A stretch of 38,596 nt of DNA from Corallococcus exiguus. Its GTDB lineage: Bacteria; Myxococcota; Myxococcia; Myxococcales; Myxococcaceae. Positions 19,092-38,596 of the stretch are shown here, piece by piece. The position numbers and the translations under genes are program-made. Numbering within the stretch: the stretch's first letter is position 1; every line of letters begins with the position of its first letter. Below the pieces are notes generated by a model that was not told the DNA's origin, did no database searches, and saw only the letters and a list, made by a program, of their open reading frames with translations. The stretch is taken from positions 1 to 38,596 of the forward strand of contig JABELA010000052.1 of the NCBI GenBank assembly GCA_012985245.1, read 5' to 3'.

Positions 19092-22000
19092 CTACCGGCG
19101 CGCCTTGCGAGCCGGCTTGCCCCGAGTGGTCTTCTTCGCCGCGGCCTTCTTCGCGGCGGTCTTCTTCCCCGCCGCCTTCTTCGCCGAAGCCTTCTTCGCA
19201 GGAGCCTTCTTCACCGCCGCCTTCTTCGCGGCCGTCTTCTTGCCCGCTGCCTTCTTCGCGGAAGCCTTCTTCGCAGGGGCCTTCTTCGCGGCGGACTTCT
19301 TGCTCGCCGCCTTCTTCGCGGAGGCCTTCTTCACCGCCGCCTTCTTCGCGGAGGCCTTCTTCGCAGGGGCCTTCTTCACCGCCGCCTTCTTCGCGGAGGC
19401 CTTCTTCGTCGGAGCCTTCTTCACCGGCTTCGCCGAGCCCTCCGGCGCCTCGCGGGCGTCGCCGCCCTCCTTGGCCCGGTCGAACTCGCGCATCGCGTCG
19501 TCCACGAGGCCCATGCTCATGTACGCGACGCCCAGGTCGTGGTGGTCCGCCGGGGACAGTCCTTCCTTGGTGCCCTCGCGCAGCTTGTTGAGGGCCTCCT
19601 CCACCATCGGATCCGCGGCCTGGGGCGCCTGCGAAGCCTCTTCGGCTTCAATCTCGCCCTTCAGCTCCTGGCCCAGGTTCACCGCTTCGTCCTTCGGTGC
19701 CTGCGGCTCGGTGGCCACCTTCACCTGGGCGCTCTCAGGCGCGAGGGACTCGGACGCTTCAGGGGCTTCGGACTCGGTGCTGCCCGGCAACGGCGACGGC
19801 GTCTCGGACATGGGGGGCTCCGGGGCGATGCGCTGGAAGTGATCCTGCAGCTTGACCGTGCGCTCCTGGAGCTCCGCCACCCGGGCCTTGTCCTTCTCCA
19901 CCACGTCCGGCGGAGCACGGGCCACGAAGTTCGGGTTGTCCAGCTTGCGCTGCAAACCGGTGAGTTCCTGCTCGGAGCGGACGATCTCCTTCTTCAGGCG
20001 CTCGCGCTCCGCGTCCAGGTCCACCAGGCCCGCCAGGGGCACGTAGATTTCCAGGTTGCCGCTCACGAACGCCGCCGCCTGCGGAGGCTTGGCGCCCGGG
20101 GGGCCCACCACCACCTCGGACAGGCCCGCGAGCGGCATCAGGTACGCGCGCCAACGCTCCAACAGCTCGCGCGTCGTCGCGTCCGGGCTCTGCACCACCG
20201 CCTTCACCTTGGCGGACGGCGGCAGGTTGCTCTCGCCGCGCAGCGTGCGCAGGCCCTCGATGGCCGCGATGACCGGCGCCATCTCGCCTTCCGCGGCCGC
20301 GTCCACCCACGCCGTCTCCGGCGCCGGGTAGGCCGCGATGCAGATGCTCTCCGTGGGCCGGGACATCGGCAACTTCTGCCAGATCTCCTCGGTGATGAAC
20401 GGCATGAACGGGTGCATCAGCCGCAGGATGCGGTCCAGGCACGTCACCAGCACCGCGCGCGTGGTGTCCTTGGCCTCCGCGTCGTCGCCGTACAACGAGC
20501 CCTTCGCCAGCTCGATGTACCAATCGCAGAACTCCGCCCACAGGAACTGGTACAGCGTGGACGCGGCCTCCGCGAAGCCGAACGCCTCCAGCGACGCGCG
20601 CGTCTCCTCGGTGGCCTTCTGCAGGCGGGAGAGGATCCACCGGTCCGCCAGCGTCAGCTTGCGGCCCTCCAGCGGCGTCTTGTCCAGGCTGAAGTCGCCC
20701 ATGTTCATCAGGGCGAAGCGGCTGGCGTTCCACAGCTTGTTGCAGAACGCCTTGTAGCCACCCAGGCGGTCCATCGACAGCTTGATGTCACGGCCCTGCT
20801 GCGTGAGCGACGCCAACGTGAAGCGCAGCGCGTCCGCGCCGTGCGCGGGCATGCCCTGCGGGAAGCGGTTGCGCAAGGACGGCTGCAGCGACTCCGCCTT
20901 CGCGCCGAGGATGACGTCCAGGGGATCGATGACGTTCCCCTTCGTCTTGGACATCTTCTCGCCCTTCTCGTCGCGCACCATCGCGTGCAGGTACACGGTG
21001 CGGAAGGGCACGTCGTTCATGAAGTGCAGGCCCATCATCATCATCCGGGCGACCCAGAAGAAGATGATGTCGTGGCCCGTCTCCATCACGGACGTCGGGT
21101 AGAAGGTCTGGAGATCCGCCGTCTGCTTCGGCCAGCCCAGCGTGGAGAACGGCCACAGCGCGGACGAGAACCAGGTGTCCAGCACGTCCGGATCCTGCGT
21201 CAGCTCCTTGCCGCCGCACTTCGGGCAGGACTCCGGCGCCGTGCGCGACACGATGACGTCCGCCGTGTCCTTCGAGCGCTCTTCCGCCGGGGTGCACGCC
21301 GCGCAGTACCACGCCGGAATCTGGTGGCCCCACCACAGCTGGCGGCTCACGCACCAGTCGTGGATGTTGTTCATCCAGTGGAAGTACGTGTTCGTCCACG
21401 ACTCGGGGACGAACTTGGTGCGGCCCTCCTCCACGGCCTGGATGGCCGGCTTCGCCAGGGGTTCGATCTTGATGAACCACTGCGGCGACAGGCGCGGCTC
21501 CACCACCGTGGTGCAGCGCTGGCAGGTGCCCACGTTCAGCTTGTGCGGCTCCTCCTTCTCCAGCAGGCCCAGCTCCGTCAGGTCCGCCAGCACCTGCGTG
21601 CGCGCCTCCCGGCTCTCCAGGCCCGCGTACTTGCCGGTGTCCTTCGTCATCCGCGCCGCTTCGTCCAGGATGGACAGCATCGGCAGCTTGTGGCGCAGGC
21701 CCGTCTGGTAGTCGTTGAAGTCGTGCGCGGGCGTGACCTTCACCACGCCGGTGCCGAACTCCATGTTCACCAGCTCGCCGTCCGCGATGACCGGAATCTC
21801 ACGGTCGGTGAGCGGCAGCGCCACGCTCTTGCCGATGAGGTCCTGGTAGCGCGGATCCTCCGGGTGCACGGCGACGGCCGTGTCGCCCAGCAGCGTCTCC
21901 GGGCGCGTCGTGGCCACGGTGAGGAAGCGCTCCGTGCCCTTCACCGGGTAGCGGATGTGCCAGAGCGAGCCGTTCTTCTCCTCGTGCTCCACTTCCAGGT

Positions 22001-22571
22001 CGGAGAGGGCCGTGCGGCAGGACGGGCACCAGTTGATCAGCTTCTGGGCCCGGTACATCAGGCCCTCTTCGTACAGCCGGACGAACACCTCGCGCACCGC
22101 GGCCGAGGACTGCTCGTCCATGGTGAAGCGCTCGCGGCTCCAGTCCAGGGACGCGCCCAGGTAGCGGTGCTGCTCACCGATGCGCGCGCCGAACTTGCCC
22201 TTCCACGTCCAGACGCGCTCGAGGAACGCCTCGCGGCCCAGGTCGTGGCGGCTCTTGCCCTCCGTCTTCTTGAGCTCCTTCTCCACCACCATCTGCGTGG
22301 CGATGCCCGCGTGGTCCGTGCCCGGCAGCCAGAGCGCGTTGAAGCCGCTCATCCGCTTCCAGCGCGTGAGGATGTCCTGGATGGTCGCGGTGAGCGCGTG
22401 GCCGATGTGCAGGCTGCCCGTCACGTTGGGCGGCGGCAGCACGATGCTGAACGGCGGCTTGGAGGAAGGGGCTTCGGCGCGGAAGTAGTCGCGCTCCAGC
22501 CAGTGGTTGTACCACCGCGCCTCCACTTCGGAGGGCTCGTAGGCCTTGGACAGTTCAGTCGTGTCAGTCAT
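19092..22571 (-). CDS. valS: Valyl-tRNA synthetase with C-terminal Lys/Ala-rich histone-H1-like extension
   Basis: Class I HIGH ([14 protein letters not shown]) and KMSKS (KMSKTKGN) motifs. CP1 editing and anticodon-binding regions are present, followed by a C-terminal coiled coil. An additional ~250 aa follows: an acidic segment, a TPR-like helix pair, and roughly 25 AKKA/KKAA repeats. Confidence 0.92.
19095..19440. repeat. Tandem 12/24-nt repeats (gccttcttcgcg-type) encoding the KKA tail of ValRS
   Basis: Repeated gccgccttcttcgcggaggccttcttcgcaggggccttcttc units are visible in the DNA. Confidence 0.8.
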
Positions 22572-22624
22572 TGCAAGCGGCCGGCCCCCGACGGGGCCGG
22601 CGGGGAATCAGAGGGGACTGCGAA

Positions 22625-23887
22625 TCAATGCTGGGTCTCGCGGTCCTTGATGAGCCGCTCCAGCTCTTCCCGGATGATGGTCTCCGCCAGCTGCGGAACG
22701 ACCTCCCAGGCAATCTTCTCGATGACCTCGCGGGACGCCTTCGACAGCGCCTCGCGCAGCAGCGCCTCTCCGCCATCCGCGGCCGGACGGGCGCGCGAGG
22801 GAGGAGTCGCCGGCGAGGGGCCGCCGATGTCCAGGGAGATCTCCTCCGCGCCGCTGGGCTCGGGCAGCGAGTCCTCGATGCGGATGCTCTCCGTGCGGGC
22901 CTGCGCCGCGGGCGGGGCGGCCGGAGCGCCCAGCCCGAACGGATCCCGGGCACGGGCGGCCGGAGGCACCGCGGCGGGCGGGGGCGCGGACGGCAGCGGC
23001 GCGGCGCCCGGAGGACGCGGGAAGCCGCCCGGGATGTTCGGGGCGCCAGGGCCCGGAGGACGCGCGGCCATGCCCGGAGGCGGCGCACCCGGCGGACGCG
23101 CGCCCGGAGGCACGGCACCCGGAGGAGGACGCGCACCCGGCGGCATGGCGCCCGGAGGCGGCGCACCCGGAGGACGCGCGCCCATGCCCGGAGGCGGCGC
23201 ACCCGGCGGAGGACGTGCACCCGGCGGCATGGCGCCCGGAGGCGGCGCACCCGGAGGACGCGCGCCCGGAGGAACAGCGCCCGGCAGCGGACGCGCCGCA
23301 CCCGGAGGAGGAGGCACACCAGCGCCCGGAGGACGCGCGCCCGGAGGCACGGCACCCGGAGGAGGACGCGCACCCGGCGGCATGGCGCCCGGAGGCGGCG
23401 CACCCGCGGGACGCGCACCCGGCGGCACGGCGGCGGCGGGCGGCGGGCTGACCGGAGCGCTCGGGGCGGAGGTCTGGGGCAGAATGCGCGTCGCGGCGGA
23501 CGCGGGCATCGTGTTGGACTTCTGGCCCACCAGCGCCTTCACCTTGTCGAGGAGGATCTGGCTCTCGAAGGGCTTGGTGATGTGGTCATCCGCCCGGGCG
23601 GCCTTCGCGCGGTTCTCGTCGAACGCCTCGAAGGTGCCGGCGAGCAGCAGCACCGGGATGGCCTGCGTGGAGGGGTCGCCCTTGAGCGCCTCGCAGACCT
23701 CGTAGCCGCTCTTGCCCGGCATCATCACGTCGGCGAGCACCACGTCCGGACGCAGCTCGCGCGTGCGGGAGATGGCGTCCAGCCCGTTGTCCACCGCGGT
23801 CACCTGGAAGTCTTCCGTCGCGAAGATCATCCCGATCACCTTGCGGATGGTGAGCGAGTCGTCGGCGATCAGTAGATTCTTGGGCAT
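22625..23887 (-). CDS. romR: Response regulator with N-terminal receiver domain, long Pro/Ala/Gly-rich linker and conserved acidic C-terminal domain (RomR-like)
   Basis: Receiver domain: LLIADDSLTIRKVIGMIFATEDFQVTAVDNGLDAI...DVVLADVMMPGKSGYEVC...KPF, with Asp and Lys in the expected positions. The ~170-aa PPGARPPGAxPPG repeat linker and the Glu-rich C-terminal domain match the RomR architecture. The start was chosen at MPKNLLIADD; the ORF is open upstream to 23971. Confidence 0.7.
   Translation of the reverse strand: MPKNLLIADDSLTIRKVIGMIFATEDFQVTAVDNGLDAISRTRELRPDVVLADVMMPGKSGYEVCEALKGDPSTQAIPVLLLAGTFEAFDENRAKAARADDHITKPFESQILLDKVKALVGQKSNTMPASAATRILPQTSAPSAPVSPPPAAAVPPGARPAGAPPPGAMPPGARPPPGAVPPGARPPGAGVPPPPGAARPLPGAVPPGARPPGAPPPGAMPPGARPPPGAPPPGMGARPPGAPPPGAMPPGARPPPGAVPPGARPPGAPPPGMAARPPGPGAPNIPGGFPRPPGAAPLPSAPPPAAVPPAARARDPFGLGAPAAPPAAQARTESIRIEDSLPEPSGAEEISLDIGGPSPATPPSRARPAADGGEALLREALSKASREVIEKIAWEVVPQLAETIIREELERLIKDRETQH
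22950..23460. repeat. Degenerate tandem repeats (cccggaggacgcgcgcccggaggc...) encoding the Pro-rich linker
   Basis: A visible DNA periodicity of roughly 24–27 nt encoding PPGARPPGA units. Confidence 0.7.
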
Positions 23888-24004
23888 CGGCTCCGGCCTC
23901 GGGGGGCGCATACCCCCCTGAATTCGTTTGAGATTTCGGGCGAGCAAGCCTGCCTGCACGCCCTGTGTCAATCGGAGAAGCTTAGGATTCGCGCGTTGGG
24001 CCGA

Positions 24005-24817
24005 TCAAGAAAACATGCGCTGCAGGTCCAGTAACATCACCGGATCCGGCAGCCCCGGCGCCCGGAACGTTCCGGGAAGCTCGGCCGGCTTGAACTTCTG
24101 CAGCACACCCAGCACCCGGTTGGCCGCCAGCCCCACGTTCCGCCCCGCCATTTCCGTGAGGACGAACAACTCCTCCGCCTGGGCCGGCGCACCCAGCAGC
24201 GCTGGAATCGAACAGATGGGCCATAGCGCCTGCGCGTGGGGATAGACGCCCGCCACCGGCCCGCTCTGCACCGGGAGGACGCTGAACGCCTCGCCCCGGG
24301 GTACCACCTGGGAGACGCAACCCAGCGGGACGCCGAACAGCACCCCCTGGGACTCCAGCACCAGCGCCCGCTCAGGGGGCTCGTCCGCATAGTGCACGGG
24401 CCGGGGCTCTGGCGGGGTCGCCCGGGGGCCCGCCCGGTGCGGCAGCGCCTCCACGATGAGCTCCAGGTACAGCCGGTCCTTGTGCAGCACCGCGCCCCGG
24501 CTCAGCGGCGCCAGCGAGTCCGCCAGTCCCGGAGGCAGCAGGAAGAACGGATCCCTCGCGACGTCCGCGACCTCCACCACGGCGCGCACCCGCACCGCGA
24601 GCGTGGGGCTGACGTCCAGGACCACCACCATGCCCGGCACTTCCTCAGGCAGGCCGCCGAGCAACGCGGCGAGGTCCTTCACTTCCAGTACGCCGCGCAG
24701 ACTCGCGCCGCGAGCGCCCGGCATCGCGACCTCGATGACGGAGGTGGCCTCCACCGCGTAGCGCGTCTCTCCGGCCTCCACCAGCAGGCAGAGCCGCCGT
24801 CCGCTTTCAAAGGGCAC
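24005..24817 (-). CDS. Tandem CheW-like domain protein (chemosensory coupling protein)
   Basis: Two ~130-aa segments with the CheW-like pattern (RRLCLLVEAGETRYAVEATSVIEV...; ELFVLTEMAGRNVGLAANRVLGV...), including hydrophobic β-strand signatures. No kinase motifs. Confidence 0.6.
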   Translation of the reverse strand: MPFESGRRLCLLVEAGETRYAVEATSVIEVAMPGARGASLRGVLEVKDLAALLGGLPEEVPGMVVVLDVSPTLAVRVRAVVEVADVARDPFFLLPPGLADSLAPLSRGAVLHKDRLYLELIVEALPHRAGPRATPPEPRPVHYADEPPERALVLESQGVLFGVPLGCVSQVVPRGEAFSVLPVQSGPVAGVYPHAQALWPICSIPALLGAPAQAEELFVLTEMAGRNVGLAANRVLGVLQKFKPAELPGTFRAPGLPDPVMLLDLQRMFS

Positions 24818-24849
24818 GGCCCGGGACCCTAGCAGCCTTCCAGCGTTGG

Positions 24850-26259
24850 GTGCTAAGCCCTGAAACAGTCATGGCGCGACTGCTCCTCGTCGACGACGAA
24901 AAGATCGCCCGCAATCTCTACGGCGACTACCTCACGGCCGCGGGACACCTGGTCACGGCGGTGCCCACCGTGGCGGACGCGAAGGCCGCCCTCTCCGCGG
25001 CGCGGTTCGACGCGGTGGTGACGGACCTCATCCTCCCCGGCGGCGACGGCATGGAAGTGCTTCGCCACGTGCGCGAGCGCTACCCCGGCGTGGAGGTGCT
25101 GGTCATCACCGGCCTGGACAAGGTGGCCCCCGCGGTGCGCGCCATCAAGAGCGGCGCGGCGGAGTACCTGGTCAAGCCCGTGGCGCCGGAGGCCCTGGAA
25201 CACGCGCTGCGCCGCGCGCTCACCACGCGCGACCTGATGCGTGAGAACGCGTCCCTGCGCCAGCACGTCGCGCTGCTGGAGGCGGGCCAGCGCATCGCCA
25301 CCACGCTCGACCGCGAGCGGCTGTCCACGGCCGCGTCGGACGCGCTGGAGTCCATGGCCAACGCCTCCGCGGTGATGCTCCTGGAGCGGGACCCCGGCGG
25401 CACGGGCTTCCGCTCGCACGGCATGCGCGGGCTGCCGGTGGACCTGCACGAGGCGCTCGTCCCGCTGCTCATCGAGCGGCTTTCGGGCACGCGCACGCAG
25501 GTGGAGCTCGACGGACTTCAAGTTCCCTGGCCGCGCACCCTCTCCTTCCCCGCCGTGGACGGCGAGTTGGTGCTGGGCCACGCGGTGCTCTTCCACGACA
25601 ACGCGCCCGCGGAGCACCACGCGGAGACCGTGGGCTTCCTCGTGCGCAACTGGGCGCTGGCCCTGCGCAACCTGGGCCGCTTCGCCGCCGTGGAGGACCT
25701 GGCCTACGTCGATGATCTCACCCGCCTGTTCAACACGCGCTACCTGCACCTGGTGCTGGACCGCGAGGTGAACGAGGCCCTCCAGACGGAGCGCCCCTTC
25801 TCCCTGCTGTTCCTGGACCTGGACCGCTTCAAGGCCATCAACGACACGCACGGGCACCTGGTGGGCTCGCGGGTGCTGGTGGAGGCCGCGCGCGTGCTCA
25901 AGGGCTGCGTGCGCGACCCGGACGTGGTGGCGCGCTTCGGCGGCGACGAGTACGTGGTGCTCCTGCGCGGCACGGACTCCGGCGGGGCCCTCAAGGTCGC
26001 CGAGCGCATCCGCCGCACCATGGAGACCCATCAGTTCCTGGGCCGCGAGGGGCTGGCGCTCAAGCTCACCACCTGCATCGGCGTGGCCAGCTTCCCGGAG
26101 CATGCCCAGGACAAGGACCACCTGCTGGACCTGTCCGACCGGGCCATGTACCGGGGCAAGCGCGGCACCCGGAACGTCGTCTACATGGCGGCGCAGGACC
26201 TGGAAGCCACCCCGGCCGAGCGCCGTCAGAATCCCCCGCCCCCGCAGGGCCAGGGCTGA
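24850..26259 (+). CDS. Response-regulator diguanylate cyclase (REC–GAF-like–GGDEF)
   Basis: REC domain: LLLVDDE...VVTDLILPGGDGMEVL...VITG...KP. C-terminal GGDEF domain with an RxxD-like I-site and the GGDEY variant (VARFGGDEYVVLL); the DLDRFKAINDTHGH segment is typical of GGDEF. Confidence 0.85.
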   Translation: MLSPETVMARLLLVDDEKIARNLYGDYLTAAGHLVTAVPTVADAKAALSAARFDAVVTDLILPGGDGMEVLRHVRERYPGVEVLVITGLDKVAPAVRAIKSGAAEYLVKPVAPEALEHALRRALTTRDLMRENASLRQHVALLEAGQRIATTLDRERLSTAASDALESMANASAVMLLERDPGGTGFRSHGMRGLPVDLHEALVPLLIERLSGTRTQVELDGLQVPWPRTLSFPAVDGELVLGHAVLFHDNAPAEHHAETVGFLVRNWALALRNLGRFAAVEDLAYVDDLTRLFNTRYLHLVLDREVNEALQTERPFSLLFLDLDRFKAINDTHGHLVGSRVLVEAARVLKGCVRDPDVVARFGGDEYVVLLRGTDSGGALKVAERIRRTMETHQFLGREGLALKLTTCIGVASFPEHAQDKDHLLDLSDRAMYRGKRGTRNVVYMAAQDLEATPAERRQNPPPPQGQG

Positions 26260-26273
26260 ACGCCGGACGCGCG

Positions 26274-26663
26274 CTACTTGCGCAGGCTGCCCACGGTGAG
26301 GTGCTTGGGCAGCTCCACTTCCGCGGGCACGCCGCCGCCGCCCTCGCCCACCGCCTCCACCTCTTCGTGAGACGCGCCGGTGGTGATGAGGCGGTACTTC
26401 TGCGACGCCTCGCGGTCGTGCTGGGCCTGCTGCGGATCCAACCGCGCGATGAGCTGCCAGAAGAGGGCCGCGTGCTCGCGCTCCTCGTCCATGACGTGCC
26501 GCAGGATGGCCTTCGCCTCCTCGTTGTCCGTCGCGTCCAGGTGCGCGGCGTAGAGGTTGATGGCGTCCAGCTCCGCCTCGATGTTGAGCCGGATGGAGCG
26601 GGCCAGTTCGGAGTCCGTCAGCTTCCGGGGCACCAGCGAGTGGAACGGGTTCGTCTGCGGCAT
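26274..26663 (-). CDS. encC: Ferritin-like encapsulin cargo protein (EncB/EncC-like) with C-terminal targeting peptide
   Basis: Only the C-terminal 129 codons of the 505-aa track ORF look genuine (start at MPQTNPF). Two ExxH di-iron motifs (EAELDAINLYAAH; DEEREH) on a ~90-aa four-helix half-ferritin. The C-terminal ...ELPKHLTVGSLRK matches the family-1 encapsulin cargo-loading peptide consensus (LTVGSL). The upstream 375 codons of the ORF are antisense to the histidine kinase and look non-coding. Confidence 0.65.
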   Translation of the reverse strand: MPQTNPFHSLVPRKLTDSELARSIRLNIEAELDAINLYAAHLDATDNEEAKAILRHVMDEEREHAALFWQLIARLDPQQAQHDREASQKYRLITTGASHEEVEAVGEGGGGVPAEVELPKHLTVGSLRK

Positions 26664-26819
26664 GAGGACCTCAGCGACAGGGAGGGTTTCCAGCAAGCGA
26701 GCGGGCAACGACGTTCCGTCAGGCCGGGCTGGAGGACGTGCGCGAGCATCCGTTCGGTCGCGAGCGCGGTCAACCGAATCCCGCTGGGGGTGCGTTGCGC
26801 GTGAACACCTGCCTCCGCC

Positions 26820-28349
26820 ATGCTCCCGTGCATGGAGACCCCCTCGCCGCTCGCGCAGCTGCTCCAGGCCCTGGACGCGGGGGACCTGGAGAAGGCACGG
26901 GTCGCGGCCGTGGCGCTGCAACGCGCCAACGCCCATACCCATCAGGTCGCCGCGGAGGTCCTCCATGAGCTGCGTCAGCCCCTCCTGGGCGCGAAGGCCT
27001 ACGCCCAGCTGCTGGCCGAGGAAGGAGGCTCCAGCGGCCCGCTGAAGCTGCTGCTCGCGCAGGTGGAGCGGATGGAGCAGATTGTCTCCGACTTCATCCG
27101 CCTGGCCAGCGAGCGGCCGGCCCCGCAGCAGCGGCTGTCCCTGGCCGCGCCCATCTGGGCGGCGGCGAAGGTGTTCAGCGTCAACCCGGACTCGGCGCGC
27201 ATCTCGCTGGAGGTGGAGGCCCCCGAGGACCTCACCATCCAGGGCAACGCGCGGCTGATTGAGCAGCTCACGCTCAACCTGCTCAACAACGCCCGCGACG
27301 CCATGTCCGGCCGGGGCCGCGTGAAGGTGACGCTCACGCGCGATGGCGCCTCCGCGGCCCTCTACGTTTCCGACTGGGGACCGGGCATCCCGGACGAGCT
27401 GAAGACGCGCATCTTCGAGCCCTACGTCTCCGCCAGCAAACGCGGCACGGGCCTGGGGCTCGCCGTCTGTCGTCGCATCGCGCAGGAGCACCACGCGCAG
27501 GTTGCCCTGGTGCCGCCCACGACGCTGCGCGAGGTGCCGCCCCCGGCCACGGTGTTCCGCGTGCTCTTCCCGCCCACGGACGCGCCGCGCCCGCCGCGCA
27601 AGCGCCTGCTGGTGGTGGACGACGAGGGCATCATCCGGATGGTCTTCAAGGACCTGATGGACAAGGAGTGCGAAGTCATTGAAGCGGCCACGGGCGAGGC
27701 CGCGCTCGAAATCCTCCGCTCGTCGCGCGTGGACCTCATCGTCACGGACAAGAACCTGCCCGGAATCTCCGGCCTGGAGCTGGCCCAGCACGCGAGGAAG
27801 CTGGACCCCGCGTCGCGCGTCATCCTGATGACGGGCTACCCCTCGCTGGTGACGACGCAGCAGGCGCTGCAGCTGGGCCTGGTGGACTACCTGCTCAAGC
27901 CCTTCGACGACATCCGACAGGTGCGCGCGCTGCTGCGGCAGGCGCTGTACACGCCGGCCGCGCCGCCTGTCCCCGCCCCCAGCGCTGGCGTGCGCCGGGT
28001 GGACGTGCTGGAGGACAACCCGGCCACCGCGCGGCTGATTTCAGAGGCGCTGACGCTGCTGGGCCTGGAGGCGCGCGTCGTCGCGGGCGCGGAGGTGGCC
28101 ACCATGGATCCGCCCGTGGGCGTGGTGGTGTCTTGGGACTTCGCGCCGGCCTACGGCAAGAAGGCGCTGGAGCTGGCCCGGGCCCTGAGCCAGGGCGCGC
28201 CCTTCGTTGTCCTGGCCGAGCACCTCACCATGGACACGGCGCTGGCGTCGCTGCGCGCCGGGGCCGCCGCGTGCCTGCCCAAGCTGCTCTCCGACACCAC
28301 GGCGCTCAGCCGCGAGCTGGGCCTGGCCTTCAAGAAGACCGCTTCCTGA
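26820..28349 (+). CDS. Hybrid sensor histidine kinase with C-terminal receiver domain(s)
   Basis: H-box LHELRQPLLGAKAY. N-box NLLNNARDA. G-boxes DWGPGIP and GTGLGLAVCRRI. REC domain LLVVDDEGIIRM...LIVTDKNLPGISGLEL...ILMTGY...KPF. The distal ~130 aa form a second, degenerate REC-like fold. Confidence 0.85.
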   Translation: MLPCMETPSPLAQLLQALDAGDLEKARVAAVALQRANAHTHQVAAEVLHELRQPLLGAKAYAQLLAEEGGSSGPLKLLLAQVERMEQIVSDFIRLASERPAPQQRLSLAAPIWAAAKVFSVNPDSARISLEVEAPEDLTIQGNARLIEQLTLNLLNNARDAMSGRGRVKVTLTRDGASAALYVSDWGPGIPDELKTRIFEPYVSASKRGTGLGLAVCRRIAQEHHAQVALVPPTTLREVPPPATVFRVLFPPTDAPRPPRKRLLVVDDEGIIRMVFKDLMDKECEVIEAATGEAALEILRSSRVDLIVTDKNLPGISGLELAQHARKLDPASRVILMTGYPSLVTTQQALQLGLVDYLLKPFDDIRQVRALLRQALYTPAAPPVPAPSAGVRRVDVLEDNPATARLISEALTLLGLEARVVAGAEVATMDPPVGVVVSWDFAPAYGKKALELARALSQGAPFVVLAEHLTMDTALASLRAGAAACLPKLLSDTTALSRELGLAFKKTAS

Positions 28350-28434: not shown

Positions 28435-30126
<1,692 letters not shown>

Positions 30127-30257: not shown

Positions 30258-30614
30258 CTACTCCGCGAAGCGCACGAGGTTGAGCAGCTGCCCCATGTCC
30301 AGGGGCTTCTGCAGGGTGATGGCGACGCCCTTGCGCAGGCCCCGGTCGGAGATGTTGGCGTCCGTGCTGGCGGTCATCATCAGGACGGAGATGCGCTGGA
30401 AGCGGGGATCCGCCTTCAGCATCTCCGTGAAGTGGATGCCGTCCAGGTGGGGCATCAGGTAGTCGGTGATGACCAGCCCCACGGGGTGACGCTCCATGAT
30501 GTCCAGGGCCTGGAGCGCGTCCGACGCCGAGAACACGGTGTAGCCATGCATCTCCAGGTAGCGAGAGAGCATGGTGCACAGCTCGTAATCGTCGTCGACG
30601 ACCAGGATGTTCAC
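30258..30614 (-). CDS. Single-domain CheY-like response regulator
   Basis: A 118-aa protein: MNILVVDDD...LVITDYLMPHLDGIHF...MMTAS...QKPLD. The phospho-acceptor Asp and the conserved Thr/Lys are present. Confidence 0.8.
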   Translation of the reverse strand: MNILVVDDDYELCTMLSRYLEMHGYTVFSASDALQALDIMERHPVGLVITDYLMPHLDGIHFTEMLKADPRFQRISVLMMTASTDANISDRGLRKGVAITLQKPLDMGQLLNLVRFAE

Positions 30615-30702
30615 GGGGTTCGGGCCGAAACGGGGCGCTGGAAGGTAACAGCGACGCCGGTCGTTGACAACGCGAAGGACGGCTTCTTAGCTGCCGGCCC
30701 GA

Positions 30703-31776
30703 ATGGCGAAGCGCATGGCGAAGCAAGGGGAGGCGCGGGACATGGACGCGCGGCTGGAGGGAGTCGCGGACGCCTTCGAGGCGAGGGACTTCGAGGCCGC
30801 GCTCACCAGCGCCGACGCCCTGCTCCGGGACGTTCCGGACTCACCAGAAGCCCTGCACTACCGGGCCGCCGCGCTGGTGGAGGTGGGACGCCTGGAGGAC
30901 GCGGGCAAGGCCTATGGCGCCGCCCTCAAGATGGCCCCGGAAGACCTGGAGATCCTCTTCGGCGCGGCGGAATTCCTCGTGTGCCGCACCGGCGAGGACC
31001 GCGAGGCGGTGGAGGAAGGGCTGGAGTGGTGCGGCCGCGGGCGGAAGCTGGCGCAGCGGGCCGATGACGTGGAGCTCGTCTACGAGTTCCTCCTCCTGGA
31101 GGGCATGGGCCTCAACCAGCTGGGGGAATGCGAGTCCGCGCTGAAAATCCTGGACCAGGCGCTGACGCACATGCCGCGCTCGACGGACGCGCAGCTGGAG
31201 CGGGGCATCGCGCTGTTCGAGTTGTGCCGCTTCGCGCCCGCGCAGGAGGCCTTCGAGCGGGTGTTGAAGGACGCGCCGGACGAGGCCTGGGCGCACCACT
31301 ACCTGGGGCTGGTCGCGGAGCGGCGCCAGGATGCGAAGGAGGCGAAGAAGCGCTTCTCCCGGGCGCAGGCGCTGGCCCCGGAGGAGCTGCCGCCGCCGGT
31401 GGCGCTGGAGGAGGCGGCGTTCGACCGCGCGGTGGAGGACGCGATGCGCGCCCTGCCCTCCCAGGTGAAGCAGTACATGGACAACGTGACGCTGGCGGTG
31501 GAGGACCTGCCGTCGGATGAGGACCTGCTGGGTCAGCAGCCGCCACTGTCACCGTGCATCCTGGGGGTGTTCCGGGGCACGCCCGTGGGCGAGCGCAGCG
31601 TGATGGACGCGGCGGATCACTTCCCGCCCTCCATCGTGCTGTACCAGAAGAACCTGGAGCGCTTCGCGCGCACCCGCGAGGAGCTCATCGAACAGATTGG
31701 CATCACGGTGATGCACGAAGTCGGTCACTTGATGGGTCTGGATGAAGACGACCTGTGGGAGCGGGGGCTGGACTAG
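30703..31776 (+). CDS. TPR-repeat protein with C-terminal zincin-like (DUF1025-type) metallopeptidase motif
   Basis: Several 34-aa TPR-like helix pairs (ALHYRAAALVEVGRLEDAGKAYGAALKMAP...). C-terminal ITVMHEVGHLMGLDEDDLWERG carries a HExxH motif. Confidence 0.7.
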   Translation: MAKRMAKQGEARDMDARLEGVADAFEARDFEAALTSADALLRDVPDSPEALHYRAAALVEVGRLEDAGKAYGAALKMAPEDLEILFGAAEFLVCRTGEDREAVEEGLEWCGRGRKLAQRADDVELVYEFLLLEGMGLNQLGECESALKILDQALTHMPRSTDAQLERGIALFELCRFAPAQEAFERVLKDAPDEAWAHHYLGLVAERRQDAKEAKKRFSRAQALAPEELPPPVALEEAAFDRAVEDAMRALPSQVKQYMDNVTLAVEDLPSDEDLLGQQPPLSPCILGVFRGTPVGERSVMDAADHFPPSIVLYQKNLERFARTREELIEQIGITVMHEVGHLMGLDEDDLWERGLD

Positions 31777-35690: not shown

Positions 35691-35790
35691 GCGGTAGGGC
35701 CTCCGGACCTGGTGGCCGGCCCGGTCTTCAAAACCGGTGAGGGGCTGCGAGAGCAGTCCCTGGCGAGTTCGATTCCCGTGCCCTACCGCC
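35691..35790 (+). tRNA. selC: tRNA-Sec (selC-like, anticodon UCA) with long variable arm
   Basis: Acceptor arms gcggtaggg / ccctaccgc. Anticodon stem-loop ccggt-cTTCAaaa-ccgg closely matches E. coli selC GGACTTCAAATCC. Long extra arm ggggctgc-gaga-gcagtccc (E. coli: GGGGCCGC-CA-GCGGTCCC). T-loop gagTTCGATTccc. Total length ~100 nt. Exact ends are ±3 nt. Confidence 0.7.
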
Positions 35791-35879
35791 ATGTTTTCCT
35801 TGGGGTTTTCTGACGCGGCCCTGATCGGGTTGCGAGGCGCCCTGCCCTCCCTTACCTCTCGTACCCAAGTTCTACCCAA

Positions 35880-37046
35880 ATGAGGGGGTACGGGCCGCGT
35901 ATGCCGAAGTGGAGCGGGAAGTGGATCGGGGGCCGCACGTACACGGCCACCGACGGAAGCACGCGCTGGATCATCCGCAAGACCGTCGCCGGGGTCGCGC
36001 ACAACGTCACGCTGGACGTGCGGAGCGAGGCCGAGGCACTGGCCGAGCTGGCGGCCTTCCGCCGCAACCCGGTCGCGTACCGGACCGCGAGCCAGGAGCG
36101 CCAGGACGAGGCCCAGCAGGCCCAAGAGGACGCCGCGCAGGCGGTGTTCCTGGACGAGGATCGCGCCCGGCGGTTCCTCCAGCACCTGAAGGCCAGCGGC
36201 AGGTCCGTCGAGTACCTGAAGAGCACGCGCAGCTACCTGGCCGCGTGGGCAACGGCGCTCATGGGCAAGGACCTACGCGTGGTGACCGGACCGGCGTTGA
36301 AGAAGATCCTGGCCACCTGGGACACCGGAAAGAAGTGGAGAATCATCGTGTTCAAGTCCTTCACCTCGTTCCTACTGGACGCGGGCGAGTTGGACCCGAT
36401 GGTGAACCCCGGGCGCTTCCTGAAGGTCCCCCCTGCCCGTCGAAACCACGAACTCAAGGGCTACAGCATCGAGCACGTCCAGAAGCTCTACGCGGCCCTC
36501 GGCTCGCAGGCCATCCGCGACGTGCTGTGCCTCCAGGCCAAGACCGGAATGCACGGCACCGAGGTGGACCGGCTCGCGAGCGGTGACGGAAAGATCACGG
36601 CGTTGAAGGACCAGGGCGAGATCGCAGCCACCGTCACGTTCAAGCACAAGACCGGGAAGCGGTTCACCTTGTCGCTCGATACGCAGGGGCTCGCCGCCGC
36701 CCAGCGCCTTCAAGCCCGGGGTTCAGCGCCGGATCGGCAGACCATCCGTGAGGCCGTGGAGCGAGTGTGCGCGCGCACGGGCCTGGAGTTCGTTCACTTC
36801 GGCGCGATCCGGCACAGCTTCGCAACATGGCTGGTCGAGCGAGGCAGCCTTTACAACCCGCAGGGCGGCGGCCTCTCCCTGGAAGCCGTAGCCCAGGCGC
36901 TCAACCACAGCAGCACACGGACCACGGCCCTCCACTACGTCAGCGCCACAGTGCCGCCGATGTACGTCGTCCCCATCTGCCTGGCGCATCCAGCCGATCC
37001 AGTGACGCTGCGCATCGTACAGGCCCAGGCGCTTCAGTCCGAATGA
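35880..37046 (+). CDS. int: Tyrosine-type site-specific integrase (phage integrase family)
   Basis: C-terminal catalytic domain with R...HxxR (IRHSFATWLVERG) and a Tyr nucleophile region (LNHSSTRTTALHYV). The N-terminal SAM-like/arm-binding region is present. The gene sits 90 nt downstream of the tRNA-Sec 3' end. Confidence 0.9.
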   Translation: MRGYGPRMPKWSGKWIGGRTYTATDGSTRWIIRKTVAGVAHNVTLDVRSEAEALAELAAFRRNPVAYRTASQERQDEAQQAQEDAAQAVFLDEDRARRFLQHLKASGRSVEYLKSTRSYLAAWATALMGKDLRVVTGPALKKILATWDTGKKWRIIVFKSFTSFLLDAGELDPMVNPGRFLKVPPARRNHELKGYSIEHVQKLYAALGSQAIRDVLCLQAKTGMHGTEVDRLASGDGKITALKDQGEIAATVTFKHKTGKRFTLSLDTQGLAAAQRLQARGSAPDRQTIREAVERVCARTGLEFVHFGAIRHSFATWLVERGSLYNPQGGGLSLEAVAQALNHSSTRTTALHYVSATVPPMYVVPICLAHPADPVTLRIVQAQALQSE

Positions 37047-38500: not shown

Positions 38501-38596
38501 CTACGCTGCCAGCCTCTTGGTTGCGGCCCTCCGCTCGTATTCCACTGGGCTGACGTAGCCCAGGGCGGAGTGGCGCCGCTTCCGGTTGTAGAACAC
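38501..38596 (-). mobile_element. 3' end of IS3-family transposase gene (orfB, DDE/rve C-terminus), truncated by window edge
   Basis: The reverse complement of 38501–38596 translates to VFYNRKRRHSALGYVSPVEYERRAATKRLAA*. The FYN(R/H)xRxHSxLGYxSPxE(F/Y)E signature is the conserved C-terminus of the IS3/rve integrase core. Confidence 0.6.

Follow-up and report, generated by a model that had tools for sequence, protein, structure and literature searches.

The gene and its surroundings

The 38.6-kb stretch of DNA analysed here (the window, positions 1 to 38596 of a Corallococcus exiguus contig) contains, on the minus strand at 26274..26663, a small gene, encC, that consists of 129 codons and a TAG stop codon. 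The coding sequence is delineated by translation, by a match to a protein of known structure in the PDB, by family profiles and by GC3, and its 129-residue product reads MPQTNPFHSLVPRKLTDSELARSIRLNIEAELDAINLYAAHLDATDNEEAKAILRHVMDEEREHAALFWQLIARLDPQQAQHDREASQKYRLITTGASHEEVEAVGEGGGGVPAEVELPKHLTVGSLRK. The 130-codon frame (129 amino acids and the stop) makes up the 3'-terminal portion of an ORF of 505 aa on the same strand (26274-27791), and an earlier reading made from the sequence only had taken the real gene to be the C-terminal 129 codons of this GC-artefact ORF. Several lines of evidence agree with this delimitation. GC3 is 0.96 within the 129 codons vs 0.72 further upstream in the long ORF, where GC1 is 0.91; this upstream segment also overlaps a hybrid kinase gene on the opposite strand (26820-28349). 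A Shine-Dalgarno-like GAGG, read from the sequence (26669..26672, minus strand), lies 5 nt before the encC ATG. In the alignment of 22 homologues, the start methionine is common to 20, and the N-terminus, MPQTNPFH, is near-invariant. Because of the contrast in GC3 and GC1, the overlap with the kinase gene, the GAGG, and the shared methionine and N-terminus, the gene is limited to the last 129 codons of the 505-codon frame.

Pfam annotation of the surrounding genes shows, on one side of encC, ValRS (19095-22607, minus strand), a RomR-like response regulator with a long tail (22628-24004, minus strand), a CheW-domain protein (24008-24868, minus strand), and an RR-GGDEF protein (24850-26259, plus strand). 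On the other side are the hybrid histidine kinase (26820-28349, plus strand), GroEL (28435-30078, minus strand), a single-domain response regulator (30258-30614, minus strand), and a TPR/zincin protein (30691-31773, plus strand). The romR-like gene, GGDEF cyclase, hybrid kinase and groEL, which the earlier reading had listed as neighbours, are thus all present by Pfam, as is the CheW gene. In Myxococcus xanthus, the romR locus comprises MXAN4460 (ValRS), MXAN4461 (RomR), MXAN4462 (CheW), and MXAN4463 (RR-GGDEF) (PMC2034494), and EncC is encoded by MXAN_4464, whereas EncA, EncB, and EncD are encoded by MXAN_3556, MXAN_3557, and MXAN_2410, respectively (PMC5959871, PMC11202242). The gene order in the window equals that of MXAN4460-4463, and therefore the gene at 26274..26663 occupies the position of MXAN_4464.

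In two Corallococcus and two Myxococcus assemblies and in Stigmatella aurantiaca DW4/3-1, the orthologue is flanked by genes in this order, too. Because the order holds in three genera, the remote location of the gene is ancestral for Myxococcus, Corallococcus, and Stigmatella, rather than a peculiarity of a single strain or an anomaly. The label of orphan that had been attached to the gene is therefore apt only as a description of its position, in a window that lacks the shell gene; as a claim of anomaly it does not hold, given that the arrangement is both ancestral and already characterised.

The ValRS (19095-22607, minus strand) carries a C-terminal extension of ~100 residues (1063-1168) that matches the Pfam histone H1-like family HC2 with 41.5 bits, just over the 40-bit cut-off. 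Two further Corallococcus assemblies have an HC2 match on record for ValRS; the ValRS proteins of Myxococcus and Stigmatella are of comparable length (1233 and 1176 aa, respectively), with no HC2 match on record.

Further away from encC, the window contains several other genes of note. At 15244-17574 (minus strand), it encodes a protein of 777 aa that is homologous to the eukaryotic Major Vault Protein (MVP) over nearly the full length, contains Pfam Vault repeats and an MVP_shoulder domain, and aligns with the rat and human MVP structures with E ~1e-139 (query 130-761 on MVP 214-857). This gene adjoins an HmuY-like gene and two ORFs without a family match, and two more distant Corallococcus loci that were examined contain other genes at its position; the occurrence of MVP homologues among the Myxococcales has been reported previously (bioRxiv 10.1101/872010). 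At 9724-11451 (minus strand), there is a gene for a 576-aa protein that combines a LysM domain with a C-terminal domain similar to that of the type VI secretion protein VgrG3, which suggests a possible secreted cell-wall-degrading protein and would fit a predatory myxobacterium. Near the end of the window, a tRNA-SeC gene (35693-35791, plus strand) is directly followed by a gene of the phage integrase family (35880-37046, plus strand), and the GC content falls to 0.62 past 37 kb (the window ends at 38596); this region has the appearance of the border of an element that integrated at tRNA-Sec.

The encC gene points towards the RR-GGDEF gene and away from the hybrid kinase gene, an arrangement conserved in the three genera, and the divergent pair of encC and the kinase gene shares an intergenic region of 156 bp (26664-26819). 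Alignment of this region across Corallococcus, Myxococcus, and Stigmatella reveals the invariant blocks GCAACGC, GTTGACC, and CGGATGCTC, which may be shared or divergent promoter/operator elements. Among the conserved sequences, TTGACC-N17-GATGCT (26745..26773, minus strand), which faces encC and whose hexamers are invariant in all three genera, may be the encC promoter. We propose it as a candidate only, because a consensus scanner applied to positions 26150-26900 called neither a promoter nor a terminator at the thresholds of the tool. A sigma-54-like GG...GC element upstream of encC was considered as well and rejected by eye, its spacing being N9 instead of the required N10.

The ferritin-like protein and its targeting peptide

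The best match to the encC product in the PDB, over the full length of the protein, is M. xanthus EncC (PDB 7S8T; E = 4e-64), with 78% identity by tblastn; it is followed by other encapsulated ferritins (~1e-9) and M. xanthus EncB (~1e-6). The protein passes the cut-offs of both the NCBIfam family NF058679, EncB_fam ('encapsulin nanocompartment ferritin-like cargo protein'; 112 bits vs 90), and the Pfam family PF22277, EncFtn-like (37 bits vs 27), and scores 78 bits against NCBIfam TIGR04535, ferrit_encaps, an encapsulin-associated ferritin-like subfamily, which is under the cut-off of 125. The protein is thus a member of the EncB/EncC branch rather than of the TIGR04535 branch. The alignment with EncB and EncC that had been suggested as a check yields 78% identity to EncC over the full length and 32% to C. 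exiguus EncB in the ferritin domain; with this low identity and a different architecture, an assignment to EncB was rejected. Because the match to 7S8T extends over the full length and the flanking genes are those of the M. xanthus romR locus, this Corallococcus gene is almost certainly orthologous to M. xanthus encC, whose product is the principal ferritin-like cargo of the family-1 encapsulin compartment in which myxobacteria store iron.

The AlphaFold2 model of the protein (mean pLDDT 80, above 90 over the core, with the tail disordered from residue 109) contains a ferritin-like, EncFtn-type helical domain in residues 17-94 (26382..26615, minus strand; pLDDT 84-97). In this model, the two hairpin helices, 17-44 and 48-75, carry E31, Y38, H56, E60, E61, and H64, and a third helix spans residues 77-94. 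When the model was compared with the PDB using Foldseek, five chains of 7S8T came out on top (target-normalised TM 0.77-0.81), followed by the EncFtn of Pyrococcus furiosus and Rhodospirillum rubrum, with 5N5E and 5DA5 among the structures retrieved. Failure of the ferritin-like fold in structure prediction had been named as grounds for doubting the cargo assignment; on the contrary, the EncFtn helical hairpin is predicted and 7S8T is the first structure retrieved. Together with the EncB_fam and EncFtn-like matches and the match to 7S8T, the predicted fold bears out the original claim of a ferritin-like cargo of a family-1 encapsulin.

The residues E31, Y38, H56, E60, E61, and H64 are invariant in the alignment of 23 sequences, and four of them, E31, Y38, E61, and H64, align with E32, Y39, E62, and H65 of R. 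rubrum EncFtn, the ligands of an inter-subunit di-iron centre (PMC5012862). By analogy, the di-iron site of the window protein is predicted to be formed between two chains. The sequence-only reading was mistaken on one point here: instead of the two ExxH motifs it had counted, a regular-expression search finds a single one per monomer, E61-R-E-H64; E31 is the other iron ligand, and Y38 is close by.

The helical domain is followed by a linker in residues 95-120 (26304..26381, minus strand), which includes a short helix (99-103) and then a Gly-rich stretch predicted to be disordered, with pLDDT below 50 from residue 109 of the model. In the alignment, the linker varies between species in both length and sequence, with indels and low conservation, and the EncC products of conspecific strains are 128, 129, and 131 aa long. 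The protein ends with the C-terminal targeting peptide HLTVGSLRK, residues 121-129 (26277..26303, minus strand), a predicted binder of the inner face of EncA. Its core, LTVGSL (26283-26300), located two residues before the stop codon, is the sole match to the pattern [LIMF][TS][VI]G[SNTGA][LMF] in a six-frame search of the window, which accordingly yielded no further cargo with a targeting peptide. In the 23-sequence alignment, T123, V124, G125, and R128 of the peptide are invariant among the homologues. The peptide matches that of M. xanthus EncC, PEKRLTVGSLRR; a cryo-EM structure resolves the latter (RLTVGSLRR) on EncA (PMC10402063). With respect to M. xanthus EncC, the core of the peptide differs only in the terminal residue, K in the window vs R, and lysine is found at this position in other homologues as well. 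Being unique in the window, conserved, and matched to the M. xanthus peptide, and being of the type hydrophobic-x-hydrophobic-G-x-hydrophobic with a basic residue, the C-terminus can be recognised as a family-1 cargo-loading peptide, as had been read from the sequence.

The shell gene and proposed loading in trans

When the window was searched with M. xanthus EncA (a query 100% identical to PDB 4PT2) using tblastn, the best E value was 7, and Pfam detected no Linocin_M18 domain in encC or in the 25 large ORFs of the window that were scanned. The observation that no HK97-fold shell gene lies nearby therefore stands. A shell is on record for the species, however: C. exiguus EncA is found on 23 contigs, as an identical protein, and at 10 of the 10 places listed for these contigs, a gene for a 162-aa EncFtn-like protein (encB) lies 63 bp upstream of encA and a sigma-54 activator gene lies downstream. 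This EncA is 95% identical to that of M. xanthus and keeps R29, R35, D39, N106, D214, Y217, and D244 (full-length numbering), all of them reported peptide contacts (PMC10402063, PMC11126975). Four assemblies (GCA_006376655.1, ERZ23579034, GCA_013155195.1, and GCA_003986945.1) contain both the encB-encA operon and DNA that corresponds to part of the window with 98.6-99.3% identity.

In a scan of one genome per species, the query for which was a chimera of EncA and the window EncC, EncA was found in 78 Myxococcota genomes; the scan yielded 78 loci for EncA and two for EncC (97% and 96% identical), without a 100% match, and the genomes of C. interemptor and C. carmarthensis each contain both genes, on separate contigs. 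The window itself is only 94% identical to the DNA of these two species, over 12.4 kb, whereas a 5.6-kb stretch of it is 99.89% identical to GCA_013155175.1. The GroEL encoded in the window exactly matches a sequence recorded as C. exiguus, the most likely source, while a look-up of the window EncC yielded no identical entry. From the conspecific assemblies, we infer that encA is probably present in the window's own strain. The other ground named for doubting the cargo assignment, a genome devoid of any shell gene, is thereby countered at the level of the species.

A 38.6-kb window without a shell gene could also be found in a strain that had lost the shell gene, leaving a stranded cargo gene whose product works unencapsulated or decays. 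We consider such a loss very improbable, given the identical EncA on 23 contigs with encB directly upstream at every listed place, the co-occurrence of this operon with near-identical copies of part of the window in four assemblies, and the spread of EncA through the Myxococcota; furthermore, the peptide and the iron ligands of the encC product are intact, and the ORF is undamaged, with its GC3 of 0.96.

Even less credible is a free cytosolic di-iron protein (a COQ7 demethoxyubiquinone hydroxylase, a rubrerythrin or a plain ferritin) in place of an encapsulin cargo: the Pfam COQ7 and Rubrerythrin profiles do match marginally over threshold (25.9 bits vs 23.5 and 26.0 bits vs 22.8, respectively), but the matches span only ~60 residues, a single hairpin, of profiles with 169 and 137 positions (positions 2-60 of 169 in the case of COQ7, so that no full-length four-helix di-iron hydroxylase domain is present), and the NCBIfam COQ7 equivalog scores 14.3 bits vs a cut-off of 180, and this reading was rejected for its poor profile coverage and low NCBIfam score. 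Moreover, a four-helix di-iron enzyme is twice as large as the encC product, whose full-length best match, EncC, has been experimentally shown to reside inside encapsulins and whose conserved C-terminal targeting peptide has no role in a free enzyme. The other point in favour of a free enzyme is the naming of close homologues in public records, mostly as 'demethoxyubiquinone hydroxylase family protein' or 'rubrerythrin'. Because the COQ7 and Rubrerythrin matches cover one hairpin only and the NCBIfam COQ7 score is far under the cut-off, these names represent systematic under-annotation of the encapsulin cargo family. The practical value of the present analysis is the correction of this annotation: the homologues of EncC recorded under COQ7-type and rubrerythrin names are encapsulin cargo.

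With the gene identified as the EncC orthologue, a mechanism can be proposed on the basis of homology to the characterised M. xanthus system. The helical hairpin of ~80 residues would pair in antiparallel orientation with that of a second chain, and E31, E61, and H64, with Y38, of the two chains would form a symmetric di-iron ferroxidase centre; five such EncC dimers would then make up a decameric ring. The flexible Gly-rich linker would present the C-terminal LTVGSLRK, and three hydrophobic side chains and the terminal basic residues of this peptide would dock in pockets on the inner face of EncA during assembly of the T=3 shell. Fe2+ entering via the shell pores would be oxidised and deposited in a mineral core, so that the cell would be guarded from Fenton chemistry. 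Since encA and the gene of the second cargo, encB, would form an operon elsewhere on the chromosome, EncC would be loaded in trans. Such loading, modelled on M. xanthus EncC, was part of the initial proposal, and the orthology and the encB-encA operon in four conspecific assemblies support it.

For M. xanthus EncC, the packaging in the shell, the formation of decamers, and the ferroxidase activity are known (PMC11126975, PMC10402063). EncC is the most abundant native cargo in that bacterium, accounting for ~52% of the total (PMC10402063), and the loaded shell stores iron and protects from oxidative stress (PMC11126975, PMC10402063, PMC7355545). By extension from this work, Corallococcus EncC probably assembles into decamers, has ferroxidase activity, is encapsulated, and plays the same physiological role; the Corallococcus sequence gives no apparent sign of a mode different from that in M. 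xanthus.

The placement of encC, conserved in three genera, and the invariant blocks of its intergenic region raise a further possibility, namely, that the adjacent two-component/c-di-GMP module determines how much of the main cargo is present, independently of the shell operon. The encB-encA operon adjoins its own sigma-54 activator. We regard this possibility as unlikely; if true, split control would let the cell tune the cargo-to-shell stoichiometry in starvation or development.

Comparison with characterised encapsulin cargo

According to the encapsulin literature, the genes of classical encapsulated ferritins adjoin the shell gene, and the proteins are packed in T=1 shells. These proteins, including R. 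rubrum EncFtn (Rru_A0973, PDB 5DA5), share with the window protein the same fold, in a decamer-forming family, and the E/Y/ExxH ligands, at ~30% sequence identity. The R. rubrum-type targeting peptide is of the SLGIGSLK type (PMC11202242).

The other ferritin-like cargo of the myxobacterial shell, EncB of M. xanthus and Corallococcus (MXAN_3557, PDB 7S5C), shares with the window protein an EncFtn-type hairpin that carries the same ligands of the ferroxidase centre, as well as a C-terminal peptide of the same type, PLTIGSLRR, and is loaded into the same EncA shell. However, EncB is longer (162 aa), its linker is rich in Pro and Ala, its peptide is followed by a Gly/Ser tail, and its ferritin domain has only 32% identity with that of the window protein; furthermore, in contrast to the remote encC, its gene lies directly upstream of encA.

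The M. xanthus encapsulin, whose EncC is encoded in trans, is a textbook system for which both crystal and cryo-EM structures are available. The gene described here is thus already known in the sense that it is an orthologue, from a sister genus, of a well-studied protein that has been structurally and biochemically characterised, in the genomic arrangement in which it was characterised, and its importance beyond annotation is small. The differences are confined to the genus, the final K instead of R, and the linker (GEGGGGVPAEVELPKH in the window protein vs KEGAAPSPADVTPEKR in M. xanthus EncC). In all other respects compared, M. xanthus EncC (MXAN_4464, UniProt Q1D3Y8, PDB 7S8T) is the closest known counterpart: it is 78% identical over the full length and effectively of the same length (130 vs 129 aa), has the same hairpin, iron ligands, and LTVGSLR core, and is encoded far from encA, between ValRS, RomR, CheW, and RR-GGDEF on one side and the hybrid kinase and GroEL on the other.
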